From NCBI GenBank assembly GCA_951406725.2, contig OX597833.1:39308001-39372000 (forward strand): a DNA stretch of 64,000 nucleotides, written 5' to 3'. The DNA is from Octopus vulgaris (lineage: Eukaryota). Shown here piece by piece: positions 18,778 to 44,867 of the stretch. The stretch's first letter is position 1. Each line of letters starts with the position of its first letter. The translations under genes were made by a program, and so were the position numbers. The notes below the pieces were generated by a model. It searched no databases and had not been told where the DNA came from. It worked only from the letters and a program-made list of their open reading frames with translations.

Positions 18778-19698
18778 TAAGTAATGAAAATTTTTTTAAA
18801 TGCAGAATGCTCAAATGAAAGAAAATTTTAATAAAATGAGAAATTGATAAAATATATAAATATATATTTATTCAACCGGTTTTCGTCATTGTATGACTTA
18901 TCAAGAATATTTATGTTTAAAAAGTTTTTTAAAAATTAGAAAGGGGAAAAAAAGAAAATTGCATTGTTTTTGCAAAAGAATAATGATAAAAATGTACAAA
19001 AATTAAAAAATAAAAATTATTTTTATTATAAATGATATGACAATCTGAAATGCAATTGTCTATGCAGATTTATATAATTAGAAAATAATATAAATAAAGT
19101 GTTAAAATCTGAAAGTTAAGTTAATAAGCAATTATATAAAAAAGATAACGCAAATGAAGCTAAAATGATAATTTTATAATTTGGGTTTTACCAACAGCCC
19201 TTATTGAAGAACTCAAAAGAGTTGTCTCCCCTTACTCACAACACAGGAACTGAAGAACCACAATTACTACTACTTCCTGTCCTGCCGACATCCTGAATTA
19301 AACCAAACAACACATGCTCTTAATCCCTTTGGATCCTAATACCTCAAGGTAATTTTTTCGTGAACAATCATTAAACTCAAGATACACAACGAACTCACAA
19401 TGTATCGGAGTACTTATTTTTTCATTTTTGTACATTTTTATCATTATTCTTTTGCAAAAAACAATGCAATTTTCTTTTTTTCCCCTTTCTAATTTTTAAA
19501 AAACTTTTTAAACATAAATATTCTTGACAAGTCATACAATGACGAAAACCGGTTGAATAAATATATATTTATATATTTTATCAATTTCTCATTTTATTAA
19601 AATTTTCTTTCATTTGAGCATTCTGCATTTTAAAAAAAATTTTTCCGTACTTATCATTTCTCCATGTGCGGTCAACACAACCCCACCATTTATTGATC
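18778..19698. mobile_element. PLE-type insertion with ~235-bp inverted repeats carrying hammerhead-like motifs
   Basis: 18778-19013 is the near-perfect reverse complement of 19414-19653. Motif tattc-TTGA(C/T)AA-gtcat-aca-atgac-GAAA-accggtt-gaata in each arm. (TA)n on both sides. Confidence 0.7.
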
Positions 19699-27023: not shown

Positions 27024-27159
27024 GTGTCTGGAAAGAGTCATTTTCTTTTTGTGCCTTATAATTTAACACACTCACCGGTAAAATTTCTACTTATTCCTTA
27101 TTTACCAGTGAGTGTGTTAAATTATAAGGCACAAAAAGAAAATGACTCTCCCCAGACAC
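27024..27159. repeat. ~59-bp-arm inverted repeat
   Basis: 27024-27082 is the reverse complement of 27101-27159 with few mismatches. Confidence 0.9.
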
Positions 27160-31535: not shown

Positions 31536-31768
31536 CCGGAGTAAACACATAAATATATAAATGTGAAACAAGGTGGAAAAAAGAGTACTCAAATACCAGT
31601 GGTAGAGTAATATGCTTTATTTAAAGCAGCAGAAAATTCAACAAAACCTGTTACTCTGAGTTTCACGTTGCCGTTCATCGGACAGTTTTTGCTAGAAAAC
31701 TGTCCGATGAACGGCAACGCAAACTCAGAGTAACAGTTTTGTTGAATTTTCTGCTGCTTTAAATAAAG
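31536..31768. mobile_element. fold-back double-hammerhead mini-element, copy 1
   Basis: Arms 31615-31689 / 31696-31768. Minus HHR aaaactgt-CCGATGA-acg-gcaa-cgt-GAAA-ctcagag-TA-acag. The plus arm has lost G12. Located in (TA)n. Confidence 0.8.
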
Positions 31769-31814
<46 letters not shown>

Positions 31815-31827
31815 TATATATATACAT

Positions 31828-31875
<48 letters not shown>

Positions 31876-31975
31876 ACACACATACATACAGATATACATA
31901 CATACACACACACACACATATATATATAAACACACACATACGTACATACATATATACATATATATACATATATAC

Positions 31976-32022
<47 letters not shown>

Positions 32023-32609
32023 TATATATATATATATGCATGCATGTATGTATAGATAGATAGAATAGATAGATAGACAGATAAATAAATAGACAGACAG
32101 ACAGATATATAGATAAAGAAAGAGAGAGAGAGAGAGAAAGAGGGAGAGAAATAGATAGACTAAGAGACAGAAAATTGACTGCAGCTACACAATACATGGC
32201 AGCTGAATTGGTGCCATAACCTCCTTCAGTATCATTGGGTGAGCTTCTACATGCAAAGCTCCATCACAGGTAAATGAAAGCCTCAATACATTTGCAATTA
32301 GACTCAAGTTGCCAGGCACTGCTGGAAGTGGGATACTGTCGGAAGTACCAACATCATCATGATATCCAGCTGACAGCCGTCGAAGAGAAAATCTGAGAGT
32401 AAAGTATCTATCATCTACTTTATAATTATAATTTGTGTGTGTGTGTGTGTGTGCTTGTTTGTGTGTGTGTGTGCTTGTTTGTGTGTGTGTGTTTGTGGGT
32501 GTGTACTTGTGGGTGTGCGTGTAAATATATGATATATGATATACATATATACACCCATAATATGTATACATACTGAGATTGAGAGACAGAGAGAAAAAGA
32601 ATTATCTAC

Positions 32610-32675
<66 letters not shown>

Positions 32676-32711
32676 CTCTATCTATCTACCCCTCTCTCTC
32701 TCTCTCTCTCA

Positions 32712-32753
<42 letters not shown>

Positions 32754-32965
32754 TGATATATTGAGTAGTTGAATGAATTATCTTATTATGGATAATTCGG
32801 TTAACCGATACCTGGGTAGCAAATTCACGTCAGAAAAACACGGTTGAAGTTACATGCCTAGGGCAGAGATCACGTGCTATCGTGTGGAAATTTGTGTGTT
32901 TTTTTAAATACAAATAAATGAAAGAATGGAGTTGAACGATGAATTAACAAAATTCCTTTATTTTA

Positions 32966-33048
32966 TTTTCGACATATGTTTCGAAGGCTGCATATTCCTA
33001 ATTTCGAAGGAATAAGGGGTGCATTATGCTGCCTTCTCATCAGGAAAA
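32966..33048 (-). ncRNA. type I hammerhead ribozyme (intact core, extended stem II)
   Basis: rc: ttttc-CTGATGA-gaaggc..gccttc-GAAA-catatg-TC-gaaaa. Palindromic stem III ACATATGT. Confidence 0.8.
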
Positions 33049-34037
33049 GTATGGAACTTATGTCAGCATCAAGATGCACAAAAAAACTTTTAGATGACTG
33101 CCCACTCCCTTTACAGTTCCGTGAAGCCGTAGCTAGAAACTTTCCCAGGAATTCTAGGTATTACTCTACTATCAATTCGCATAAGGTAAGGATTGCATTC
33201 TCCAACACTAGAAATCTATCGCAGATCATTGCCTCCCATAATAACAAGCTGCTAAATAAGGACTCATCACCCGGGAGTAGCGACACTGCCCTTACCAATT
33301 CCAACCAAACATACAATAATAATAATAATAGAAGTAGTATTGATAATAGCAACATTCATAGCAGCGTTGGCATTAACAATAGTAATATTAATAATAATAT
33401 TAGTCGGATTATTAACAGTGGTAGTATTAGTGGTAATAACAACAGCATTTATAATAACAGTGGTAGTACTGATGATAACAACCCCAGCATTCCTATAGTC
33501 AGGGAAATTACCGACGATAGTACAATTAATAGTAATGATAATAATATGAATAGTATTGTTGTCAATGCTAGCAATAATATTAACACCAATCATAACAATA
33601 AAAACTCTGTCTTAGTCTTGGCGGTAAACCCTAACAGATTAAAGTTCTTATCCAGCAATTCCAAAATTAGAAATTCCATTTACCAGTGCAAAATTTCTTC
33701 CGGTACCGATGTCTTCTTCTACATTGGGGCAACTACTTCTAAATTAGCCCAGAGGATCTCCAACCATTATTCAACTTTCCGAGATAAGAGAAAACAACAC
33801 AGCACAGGACTAAGTAAAATAGTTTGGCATCTTAAGGACAGTAATACAACTTTCAAGCTGGAATGGTCCATATTGTCTGTATCCTTTCCGTTTGATAAGG
33901 GCAGAAAATTTTGTGGCATCTGTAATTCCGAACTTTTCCATATTTTGTTCGCCAAAGTCCCTTTAATAAATACAATGGTCGAGAAATCCTATAGATGCAT
34001 GCACTGGCAAAAACACACCTTTCACTCATATGAATAA
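32976..34037 (+). CDS. Penelope-like polyprotein C-terminus: RT C-terminal segment, Asn/Ser linker, GIY-YIG endonuclease
   Basis: NFP..INSHKVRIAFSNTRNLSQIIASHNNKLL, then SIYQCKI..YIGATT..RISNHYSTF..STGLSKIVWHLK..WSIL..CGICNSE..LIN..RCMH. The first ~43 codons are read-through of the inverted pLTR. Confidence 0.85.
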   Translation: MFRRLHIPNFEGIRGALCCLLIRKSMELMSASRCTKKLLDDCPLPLQFREAVARNFPRNSRYYSTINSHKVRIAFSNTRNLSQIIASHNNKLLNKDSSPGSSDTALTNSNQTYNNNNNRSSIDNSNIHSSVGINNSNINNNISRIINSGSISGNNNSIYNNSGSTDDNNPSIPIVREITDDSTINSNDNNMNSIVVNASNNINTNHNNKNSVLVLAVNPNRLKFLSSNSKIRNSIYQCKISSGTDVFFYIGATTSKLAQRISNHYSTFRDKRKQHSTGLSKIVWHLKDSNTTFKLEWSILSVSFPFDKGRKFCGICNSELFHILFAKVPLINTMVEKSYRCMHWQKHTFHSYE

Positions 34038-34606
34038 TGATTAATATAGATAACCTCCTTGAATTTTAATAATATAGTCCCATTTATATATCACCCCCAT
34101 AGTCAATTTTTATACTCTTAAAGGATTACTACCCAACCCAGTGAGGTGTGTTTTACCTTTGTCTCTCTAACTCGCCCTTCTCTCTCTCTCTCTTTCCCTC
34201 TCTCTATCGTAAGCACAATCAAACACACAGACACAAACCTGCCACTTCACCACTGTCTGTTTTTGGCATCTACCCATCCACACACACAATTACGCACACA
34301 CATACACACACATAGCCATTAATGCAGTTATATACATACACACACACATAGGCACTCATTCACAAAAGAAAACAACAAAATCACCATTCATTTGACCTGC
34401 ACCCTTTTACCTTCCTATTCTTAGGTCTCTCTCCTCCAACCTTGTTTGAACCCTTGAACCTTCTAGAATCTTCTACATTCAACCATTTTTGACGTCACTG
34501 CTTATAACGGAATATTTTAAAGAAACACTCATTATCGCTATGGGCTCCATGTGGGCAGTCATCTAAAAGTTTTTTGTGCATCTTGATGCTGACATAAGTT
34601 CCTTAC

Positions 34607-34689
34607 TTTTCTTGATGAGAAGGCGGCATAATGCACCCCTTATTCCTTCGAAATTAGGAATATGCAGCCTTTGAAACAGATGTTGAAAA
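34607..34689 (+). ncRNA. degenerate hammerhead in 3' pLTR
   Basis: ttttc-TTGATGA-gaaggc..gccttt-GAAA-cagatg-TT-gaaaa (C3>U). Confidence 0.6.
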
Positions 34690-34869
34690 TGAAATAAAGG
34701 AATTTTGTTAATTCATCGTTCAACTCCATTCTTTCATTTATTTATATTGATATATATATATATATTGATAGAAATGGCAAGACAACAAAAGAATGAAAGA
34801 GACATCAAAATTATGTAAATAGAGTAATTTATCTGTAAATATAATATTTGACAGTCATTTGGTAGCCAT

Positions 34870-34930
34870 GATAAAACTCCGAGTTTCGGATGCTGGGGCG
34901 GAAACCCATGCCGGCATCTCTTCAGTTATC
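34870..34930 (-). ncRNA. minimal type I hammerhead ribozyme
   Basis: rc: gataa-CTGAAGA-gatgccgg..ccagcatcc-GAAA-ctcggag-TT-ttatc. Partial inverted copy at ~35090-35160. Confidence 0.75.
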
Positions 34931-35159
34931 GGGCCATCGAAAAAAATGCTATGAAAATGACCGTTAAAACAAAGGGAAATTACTGATTGACTGTTATTAA
35001 GACAAAAGAGCTATTCGAATGACTGATAAGTAAGGGGAAAGAGTAAAAATGTATATATATATATATATATACATATATAAATGTATATGCCAGTGTGGGT
35101 TTCTGATCCGACATCTGAAACTCGGCGTTTTATCATGGCTACTGGATAAGTGTCACATG

Positions 35160-35360
35160 TGACTGCGTGTGTACCATTGGCGATTTTTTTTATCTTGCCT
35201 TCTCTGGATCTTTCCTTTTCCTATGTTTCTGACGAAGAGCTCCGCTCGAAGGGTGTAAAACCCTCCTTCTTCCCTTCCTTCCTGAGCGTCCAATTTAGAT
35301 AATATTTGTTCCACGTCAAAGCGTTATTGTGTTTTCCTTTGTGTTTTCATGTTTGGATTA
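35160..35360 (+). mobile_element. short element with hammerhead-like motif
   Basis: gttt-CTGACGA-agagc-tcc-gctc-GAAG..aaac. Related to 725-945. Confidence 0.55.
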
Positions 35361-35404
35361 ACTATATATATATATATATGAGTGTGTGTCTAAACACACA
35401 CACA

Positions 35405-35456
<52 letters not shown>

Positions 35457-35559
35457 TATATTATCTTTTATTTTTTACTTATTACAGTCATTAGACTGTT
35501 AGACTGTGACTGCTGGGAGGCACATAACCTTCATTAATAAATAGGTTATGTGTTTTGTG

Positions 35560-35835
35560 GCATCAGCACCCAAGCTGGTACCTTGTAAGAAACACCCAAG
35601 CTGGTACCTTGTAAGAAACACCCAAGCTGGTTCCAGGCGAAAAGCACCTGTACCAGTGTCCCATAAAAGACACCCAGTACACTCTCTAAAGTGGTTGGCA
35701 CTAGGAAGGGCATCCAGCCACAGAAACCATACCAAGACAGACAATTGGAGCCTGGTGAAGTTCTGTGACTTAGCAGCTCTTGTCAAATCCTTCAACCCTT
35801 GCAAGCATAGGAAACAGACGTTAGATGATGATAAT
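35560..35835 (+). mobile_element. family D retroposon 3' end with internal 26-bp tandem repeat
   Basis: GGAAGGGCATCCAGC..GACGTTAGATGATGAT. CACCCAAGCTGGTACCTTGTAAGAAA is repeated. Confidence 0.75.
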
Positions 35836-35837
35836 GC

Positions 35838-35876
<39 letters not shown>

Positions 35877-36090
35877 CCGGAGTAAACACATAAATGTGAA
35901 ACAAGGTGGAAAAAGAGTACTCAAATACCAGTGGTAGAGTAATATGCTTTATTTTAAGCAGCAGAAAATTCAACAAAATCTGTTACTCTGAGTTTCTCGT
36001 TGCCGTTCATCAGCAAAAACTGTCTGATGAACGGCAACGAGAAACTCAGAGTAACAGATTTTGTTGAATTTTCTGCTGCTTAAAATAAAG
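35877..36090. mobile_element. fold-back double-hammerhead mini-element, copy 2
   Basis: Arms 35947-36013 / 36024-36090. Plus HHR aaaactgt-CTGATGA-acg-gcaa-cga-GAAA-ctcagag-TA-acag. Located in (TA)n. Confidence 0.8.
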
Positions 36091-43307: not shown

Positions 43308-44867
43308 ATGCATGCATGCTTACATACATGCATACATACATACATACATGCATACAAGCATACATACATGTATGCATACATACAAAATAAGCGCAACTAT
43401 GCCTCCCCTGGTCTCGATGGAGTTACATACCTGCTTCTCAAACGTGGCAGGCACTTCCTTTTACACCAGCTTTCTATTTTCTTCCAGTACTGTCTCAACA
43501 ATGGTGCTACTCCGGAGCAGTGGAAAACTGCCAGTGTCATTCCTCTGTTCAAAAAGGGTGACCGCACATCACCTGTCAACTATCGCCCAGTCAGTCTCAC
43601 TAGCTGTATTGCAAAACTGATGGAATCGTGTGTCAGAGAAACACTCTGGAACTTCTGGAGCTCTCACAGTCTCATCCGACCCTCACAATATGGATTTGTC
43701 CCTAACTCCAGCTGCAGTGACCAGCTTGTCGAGTTCCTTGAGGACATTACTCAGATCACTGACAGTGGCTCATGGGTGGATGTTGTCTACCTTGACTTTG
43801 CTAAGGCTTTCAACTCTGTGCCACACAAAAGGCTTATGGTGAAACTCTCTGCAATGGGTGTGGGGGATGACCTTTTTAACTGGTTGAAATCCTTCATCCT
43901 CAGCCGAAAGGAGGTAGTTACAGTTCTAGGACAGCACTCTACACCATATGAGATGTCATCGGGTGTACCACAGGGATCTGTCCTTGGTCCCCTCCTGTTT
44001 GTGGCATACATTAATGACATAGATGCCAATTTAAAGAATGCCACAGTATTGAAATATGCAGACGACATCAAGCTGTACCTTGAAATCAAGAGGACTGATC
44101 CTGATGTCTACAACTCTTTCCTGCAATCAGACCTAGACACAATGCAGCAATGGATCACAGACTGGCAACTGAAACTGGCTGTGGACAAGTGTACCACCAT
44201 GCATTTTGGGAGAAAAAACCCTGCGTCCACATACTCCCTCCACAACACTGATATCAAGAAATCCTCTTGCGAGCGTGACCTAGGCATCACTGTCAGCAGT
44301 GATTTGCGTTGGACAAAGCATATCTCTAAAATTGTCAAGAAGGCCGAGGGTGTCTTGGCATCACTCAGCAAGACTTTTGTTAGCCGCTCTCCAGCCATCT
44401 ATTTAAAACTGTATACAGCTATGGTACGACCACACTTGGAATTCGCATCATCAGTTTGGAATCCCTATCTTGCTCAGAACATTGACCTCCTGGAATCTGT
44501 CCAGAGACGTGCAACCAAACGCATACCCTCCATCAGACACCTACCATATTCTGAGCGCCTTGTTTCCCTGGGCATGGATTCACTGAAGCTCCGGCGTCTA
44601 GCGACGGACTTGGTAAACACCCACAAGGTTATCAACCACCTCACCAACAACAACACTGAACACCTTTTTGATCTCCATGTGTCTAACACACGTGGACATG
44701 CCTACAAAGTCAGAAAACAGCACAGCTCCCATGACTTTCGGAAACATTTTTTCACGCTCAGGGTTGCTGAAGCGTGGAATAAACTGCCTGCATCAGTTGT
44801 TGACTGCCATGACACTGCATCCTTTAAGGCCCTCATGCTTCCCGAAATCCGTCGAAACTACACCTGA
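43308..44867 (+). CDS. non-LTR retrotransposon reverse transcriptase (ORF2 C-terminal part)
   Basis: SPGLDG, NYRPVSLTS, QYGF, VYLDFAKAF, SGVPQGSVLGPLLF, YADD and ERDLG motifs with no stops. The first ~26 codons are microsatellite read-through. Confidence 0.92.
   Translation: MHACLHTCIHTYIHAYKHTYMYAYIQNKRNYASPGLDGVTYLLLKRGRHFLLHQLSIFFQYCLNNGATPEQWKTASVIPLFKKGDRTSPVNYRPVSLTSCIAKLMESCVRETLWNFWSSHSLIRPSQYGFVPNSSCSDQLVEFLEDITQITDSGSWVDVVYLDFAKAFNSVPHKRLMVKLSAMGVGDDLFNWLKSFILSRKEVVTVLGQHSTPYEMSSGVPQGSVLGPLLFVAYINDIDANLKNATVLKYADDIKLYLEIKRTDPDVYNSFLQSDLDTMQQWITDWQLKLAVDKCTTMHFGRKNPASTYSLHNTDIKKSSCERDLGITVSSDLRWTKHISKIVKKAEGVLASLSKTFVSRSPAIYLKLYTAMVRPHLEFASSVWNPYLAQNIDLLESVQRRATKRIPSIRHLPYSERLVSLGMDSLKLRRLATDLVNTHKVINHLTNNNTEHLFDLHVSNTRGHAYKVRKQHSSHDFRKHFFTLRVAEAWNKLPASVVDCHDTASFKALMLPEIRRNYT

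Follow-up and report, generated by a model that had tools for sequence, protein, structure and literature searches.

What are the two short hairpins that stand on either side of a Penelope-like element (PLE) in the genome of Octopus vulgaris, and how did they come about? They lie in a stretch of 64,000 nt (assembly GCA_951406725.2, contig OX597833.1, positions 39,308,001 to 39,372,000 of the forward strand), which we call the window and by whose numbering all positions are given. An earlier note, made from the letters alone, described them as fold-back mini-elements with a hammerhead ribozyme in each arm and offered two readings: extremely 5´-truncated PLE insertions reduced to inverted pseudo-long terminal repeats (pLTRs), or a mobile non-coding hairpin RNA. 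Our analysis leaves little doubt that the hairpins are separate, extremely 5´-truncated inverted insertions of a high-copy PLE with Hydra-clade motifs. We refer to them as stubs, and most likely they are dead. Each has one end with a tail and one bare end:

31536..31768, strand not assigned, 233 nt: stub 1, inverted tail+bare PLE insertion, older subfamily variant
31536..31614, minus strand: tail ("leader") of stub 1, lying between the two inferred start sites of reverse transcription, with an 8-nt duplication
31615..31697, minus strand: tail-bearing arm of stub 1, depth 83 nt from the inner start site
31643..31690, minus strand: intact minimal type I hammerhead of stub 1, palindromic stem III, 1-nt loop; predicted to be sequestered
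31696..31768, plus strand: bare arm of stub 1, depth 75; hammerhead broken, G of GAAA lost
35877..36090, strand not assigned, 214 nt: stub 2, inverted tail+bare PLE insertion, young subfamily variant
35877..35946, minus strand: tail of stub 2
35947..36013, minus strand: tail-bearing arm of stub 2, depth 67; hammerhead without the 5´ strand of stem I
36012..36090, plus strand: bare arm of stub 2, depth 79; overlaps the other arm by 2 nt
36015..36062, plus strand: minimal type I hammerhead of stub 2, core plus stems I and III; predicted to be sequestered

The coordinates thus agree with the earlier description, as do the common 19-nt leader directly after (TA)n in both stubs, the fold-back arms (67-83 nt) and the differing centres. 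A short loop is present as well, but its predicted size is 4-6 nt instead of the claimed 6-10 nt. The stubs are 87% identical to each other and both are flanked by (TA)n runs; a third copy is absent from the 64-kb window. The fold of stub 2 reaches -124.6 kcal/mol (z -20.3), and 0 of 200 shuffled sequences were as stable. The proposal that the two were inserted independently is supported.

An autonomous PLE with the pLTR of the stubs, which the earlier note advised looking for, was found: its repeat unit is 3354 nt long and carries an intact open reading frame (ORF) of 711 aa. Exact matches were counted over the whole genome (2.8 Gb in 227 contigs; control words gave 0 matches). The 19-mer leader, at the tail end, occurs 6076 times, the opposite bare end 4327 times and arms continuing into the element body 2066 times, while a perfect CTAG-centred palindrome is present at 229 loci. 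At 69 tandem junctions the sequence past the leader continues into a 5´ untranslated region and an ATG, and 11 of 20 stretches fetched around such junctions contain the 711-aa ORF. Compared with the pLTR of a full-length copy, stub 1 is 92-93% and stub 2 99% identical. Because the leader precedes the 5´ untranslated region and ATG in tandem junctions, and because the stubs match the pLTR, the leader is the 71-nt 3´ tail of the parent PLE in reverse. Full-length copies have the same tail+bare layout as the stubs, and the targeting of (TA)n is evident from the TATA or TAGA that precedes 94 of 100 tail ends.

Judged by its protein motifs, the parent appears to be a Hydra-clade-type PLE. The protein of one copy (L203) contains RWK (37), DKT (113), YRDD (344), CxCX5C (562), CxxC (667) and CxH (695), and the core of the parent protein is without the CCHH cysteines; another copy (L196) has F at the second linker cysteine. 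According to section 11 of PMC8557442, RWK, DKT, CxCX5C, CxxC and CxH are marks of the Hydra clade. Comparison by eye with Hydra-1_Obim from the supplement of that paper revealed long blocks in common, and the tail motif is absent from the supplement. Pfam and PDB searches with the 711-aa protein gave no match. Its C-terminus aligns to the GIY-YIG-like protein of the window (E 2.6e-11), and its look-alikes in the atlas (0.96-0.97) bear GIY-YIG or RVT_1. At 315-551 lies a piece of reverse transcriptase from a related PLE; its identity to the parent protein is 49%.

Length statistics rest on the first 100 leader matches on one contig (C1, first 55 Mb), picked by position alone. The whole-stub DNA search was excluded from them, since it ranked stub-like copies first, and a repeat search with the whole window was dominated by simple repeats. 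Seventy-two of the 100 matches could be parsed as tail+bare inverted insertions of 93-4351 nt; 64 of these measure 93-278 nt and 8 measure 456-4351 nt, three having arms of 1.3-2.6 kb that run into coding sequence. By the test that the earlier note set out, this spread of lengths in the sample speaks for truncation products and not for a distinct element. The continuum does extend into coding sequence, but it is not smooth, for there is a sharp short class. With a parent at hand and arms ranging from tens of bases to coding sequence, the reading as inverted pLTRs of extremely 5´-truncated PLEs is supported. Giant head-to-head pairs of full-length copies (about 7.7-8.8 kb) also exist at L214, L211 and L197/L198, and both ORFs are open at L214.

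Junctions are highly diverse: the 72 inverted insertions show 64 different ones, the commonest being seen 6 times, and a perfect palindrome accounts for 6. In raw counts, arms overlap by 1-5 nt at 40 of 72 junctions, 21 are blunt and 11 contain inserted bases; self-complementary CTAG is the commonest joint. Genome-wide there are 10 instances of the exact stub 2 junction; they are spread over several subfamilies, and in 7 of them it is the other arm that bears the tail. It thus re-arises and is not inherited, and one further locus is 100% identical to stub 2 with the junction included.

The copies obey several rules. The pairing of ends was examined in two samples of 100 matches (tail matches and the first 100 bare matches): the tail sample contained 1 tail-tail insertion, and inward bare-bare pairs numbered 0 in the bare sample, whose search pattern fits 50 of 72 bare ends exactly. 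Almost every copy has its bare end fixed to the base. Insertions of the parent at (TA)n have one tailed and one bare end and, where it is visible, a target duplication of about 14 bp (14 bp in 5 of 7 informative copies, 13 and 20 bp once each); at both window stubs the duplication is hidden in pure (TA)n.

Further, the two arms of a copy resemble each other more than they resemble arms elsewhere. Differences average 0.85 within copies vs 2.69 between copies (52 nt, 48 copies; 0 of 10000 permutations), and a diagnostic site is concordant between arms in 45 of 46 copies, with 20 expected. Among the 24 arms of 12 long insertions, 21 have their own partner as nearest relative, and 8 of the 12 insertions have private variants common to both arms. 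Alignment columns carried by exactly two arms fall in one insertion in 57 of 59 cases; these are columns, not events, and those of L204 and L211 are alignment-sensitive.

Arm lengths are regular, too. The bare arm is longer in 33 copies, the tailed arm in 17, and they are equal in 22 of 72 (bare vs tailed p=0.033). In 8 of 72 copies the tailed arm does not get past the inner site; the bare arms of these copies measure 58-143 nt. Lengths are coupled, both arms being <=100 nt in 61 copies and longer in 8, with only 3 mixed (p=3e-8). Arms that reach depth 74 tend to meet a wall: by depth 85, 31 of 44 have stopped if bare, and 21 of 34 if tailed. In tandem copies, sampled from the first 30 of 69 junction matches, this depth is passed a second time, and 0 of 24 stop there then, which disfavours a sequence barrier to reverse transcription at this depth.

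We suggest the following course of events. After a staggered cut in (TA)n, each of the two ends would prime reverse transcription on one and the same RNA, the two sites being fixed and 71 nt apart. The inner site would serve one DNA end, while the other would prime at the tail end and re-copy the same RNA by strand displacement; reverse transcriptases of PLEs are not known to possess RNase H. In the case of stubs, the 5´-proximal copy of the pLTR would be used, so that both complementary DNAs (cDNAs) run off the 5´ end of the RNA about 84 nt upstream of the inner site, and long copies would come from longer templates. The two same-sense cDNA ends would then be trimmed, joined (often at CTAG) and filled in, leaving a palindrome. 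The pairing of ends, the single source of both arms, their unequal lengths, the length coupling and the wall would all follow from two ends priming on one RNA near its 5´ end.

Published observations fit several of these steps. In vitro, an Anolis PLE protein, predicted to be a dimer, cuts and extends both strands, and PLE reverse transcription begins inside the RNA at two sites bounding the tail, as described in PMC11167929. For Drosophila Penelope, transcription is described to start within the pLTR (PMC2377424, PMC8557442). The thousands of stubs are probably a record of how the two ends of a single DNA cut copied one RNA molecule. We consider the overall explanation, truncated PLE stubs made by twin priming on a single RNA, to be moderately probable, and we lean a shade less firmly towards its specific version with inner-site and tail-end priming and 5´ run-off in the pLTR. 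A wider generalization, that PLEs integrate by obligate two-ended priming on one RNA and that stubs are "strong-stop" products marking the transcription start, is tentative, and we stop a little short of endorsing it.

A number of points weigh against twin priming on one RNA. At depth 84 there is a word that resembles the initiator consensus, but it is weak evidence, being short and frequent by chance. The run data are assembled contigs, unable to show RNA starts, and the 5´ end near depth 84 is a putative one. Two RNAs transcribed from the same source copy, or conversion between arms after insertion, might also make the arms identical, and age is in part responsible for the subfamily concordance of arms. 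In a few copies, e.g. L047 and L051, the arms are discordant, and for 3 of 24 long arms the nearest relative lies in a different insertion. An asymmetry of arms could also result from deletions that later affected the centre of the palindrome. The required exact 19-mer makes the sample lean to young copies, and 28 of its 100 matches were not parsed as inverted, namely copies that are decayed, interrupted or single-armed, plus a tail-tail insertion that entered the count twice. Exact informative target duplications are present in only 7 of 40 impure flank pairs. Finally, PMC11167929 reports that the start site did not differ between strands, a result that by itself does not lead to a one-tail rule.

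The ribozymes need separate consideration. The earlier note placed a hammerhead on every arm; core plus stems are retained in two of the four arms, the others being broken by the loss of the G of GAAA (stub 1) or of the 5´ strand of stem I (stub 2). Nor are these "double hammerheads" in a functional sense, since an RNA strand has one motif at most. The plus-strand hammerhead of stub 2 has A-A at the base of stem II, the same as full-length young copies. On both strands an antisense arm precedes the motif, and the predicted cost of freeing it is 63.8 kcal/mol in stub 1 and 67.4 in stub 2, vs 6.8 in the parent pLTR; the ribozymes of stubs are thus predicted to be folded shut. Rfam scans found no hammerhead family in the minimal motif and returned only microsatellite-driven microRNA matches. 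A minimal type I hammerhead of such form is described in PMC4209133 as active only as a dimer. Hammerhead cleavage as the origin of stubs was rejected: the ribozyme cuts at depth 37, a position with no enrichment of arm ends.

How do other explanations fare with the same data? A self-spreading non-coding hairpin RNA with ribozymes in both polarities, similar to retrozymes or viroids, would explain why minis make up about two thirds of sampled copies (64 of 100) and why one other locus is identical to stub 2 down to the junction. It is largely refuted, and we regard it as very improbable: the junctions are not clonal and that of stub 2 re-arises, half of the four arms are broken, the surviving motifs are predicted to be sequestered at a penalty of 64-67 kcal/mol, and arm lengths continue into coding sequence. 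An assembly artefact through fold-back of reads is barely conceivable. Palindromes adjoining (TA)n are described as difficult to assemble (PMC8557442), yet the arms of stub 1 differ and its junction is asymmetric, several copies are flanked by target duplications, and in runs X17 and X18 (two studies, one of which may be the source sample) loose contig ends at the CTAG joint have the sequence of the mirror arm.

Two other routes to the same element deserve more weight, and we consider both unlikely. The inverted arm might be made by self-priming, i.e. fold-back of one strand, with the centre deleted later. Such a process, proposed in print for rotifer Penelope elements (PMC3846280), accounts for common private variants and coupled lengths, and it agrees with the perfect CTAG-centred palindromes at 229 loci and with the 22 of 72 junctions that are near-symmetric. 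However, only 6 of 72 junctions are perfect palindromes, where lengths differ the bare arm exceeds the tailed one more often than not, so that later deletions are required, and in 8 of 72 copies the arms overlap little or not at all; the bare end, fixed to the base in nearly all copies, behaves like a priming site. Alternatively, a dimeric complex could perform twin priming with two RNAs, usually from one source copy. This would agree with the single source of both arms and with their unequal lengths. The predicted PLE dimer that extends both strands (PMC11167929), the dimer-type minimal hammerhead (PMC4209133, and a cofold prediction made here) and the few copies with discordant arms are in its favour, but the strict tail/bare pairing and the rarity of short-long mixtures (3 of 72) need further rules, and both RNAs must stem from one among many intact copies. 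As far as sequence can tell, the published self-priming accounts for the stub record less well than does twin priming close to the 5´ end of one RNA.

The structure of inverted PLE insertions is itself already described (PMC8557442, PMC3846280). Inverted insertions of endonuclease-containing PLEs (Fig. 2 of PMC8557442; Pen2a_Av in PMC3846280) resemble the stub family in their head-to-head arms, tail at one end, target duplication, partial tandems and pLTR hammerhead. Tails there are given as 30-40 nt vs 71 nt here, and the stub family differs in that most copies are below 300 nt, arms scale together up to full length and they stop at 74-85 nt. Hydra-1_Obim and the Hydra clade, as presented in PMC8557442, differ from the stub family in pLTR and hammerhead, and elements of this clade are generally below 3 kb (a tendency, not strict) vs the unit of 3354 nt here. 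The Anolis Poseidon element PAc (PMC11167929) is alike in its two internal starts bounding the tail, the cutting and extension of both strands and an AT-rich target; its start sites are within the ORF, whereas those of the stub family are upstream of it, and inverted arms are left unexplained in the available text of that paper. Non-LTR retrozymes (10.64898/2026.07.22.740005) are likewise non-coding, derived from a PLE pLTR and equipped with a type I hammerhead. They are described as direct tandems with at least two same-strand ribozymes, whereas stubs are single inverted pairs.

We therefore rejected assignment of stubs to non-LTR retrozymes, as they lack direct tandems with at least two consecutive complete same-strand hammerheads. 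A viroid-like ambisense RNA was rejected as well, with one intact, predicted-sequestered motif per element and units that are not clonal. In LINE-1 twin priming, two target ends prime on one RNA and the inversion is joined at short homologies. The stub family differs in that its second site is fixed by the RNA and its arms mostly duplicate instead of abutting. Neither stub-dominated PLE families nor PLE twin priming were found in the literature outside subscription papers, repeat databases and bioRxiv supplements.

Taken as objects, the stubs are ordinary, most likely dead remnants of a familiar type of retroelement insertion, and they caution that scars of PLEs may pass for "ambisense ribozyme hairpins" in an animal genome. 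As data, the family offers thousands of young copies together with intact parents. It also follows four rules that can be measured, namely how ends pair, which variants the arms share, how arm lengths are coupled and where the first pass meets its wall, and these make models of PLE integration testable. The formation of inverted repeats and one-sided tails in PLEs is called undefined in PMC8557442. If obligate two-ended priming on one RNA is true, the stubs would be a genome-scale footprint that settles this origin, against self-priming.

It remains to consider the element between the stubs:

32761..34766, plus strand: middle element from a second PLE family, inserted in inverted and truncated form, GIY-YIG remnant

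The earlier note had the stubs bracketing a Penelope element. This stands as a matter of position only, the middle element belonging to another PLE family. It has its own pLTR, a tail of about 144 nt and a weak GIY-YIG match (E 0.0011, below the cut-off), and it shows no DNA similarity and 28% protein identity to the stub family. Only 1 of 19 other loci of its family has a stub-family piece within 1.5 kb, and 0 of 19 have one on both sides; about 58 pairs within 4.4 kb are expected by chance. A composite unit of stubs plus middle element was rejected on these grounds, and the bracketing is due to chance. At first look the second family has 1860 candidates; it shares the inverted tail+bare layout and includes minis, here of about 450-600 nt. 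In the window, an Asn-rich stretch precedes the GIY-YIG part of its ORF remnant, like the N-rich inserts of rotifer Penelopes. Further PLE-like end fragments are situated between TA runs at 34770-35350, with a hammerhead-like motif on the minus strand (34930-34870).

Other parts of the window also contain inverted repeats. Positions 27039-27144 (about 106 nt) form a fold-back of their own, its arms nearly perfect and its spacer short, and at 18791-19637 two arms of 181 nt, 99% complementary and 485 nt apart, adjoin TA repeats. Within the parent family, one low-depth contig (run X1, guessed to be RNA) has a cluster of A>G changes at L203:2963-3076 that the other runs mostly lack, which hints weakly that double-stranded RNA of long inverted copies undergoes A-to-I editing. 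Lastly, positions 43308-44867 hold an open frame of 519 aa with an RVT_1 domain (E 2e-37), for which tblastn gave no match to the PLE protein.

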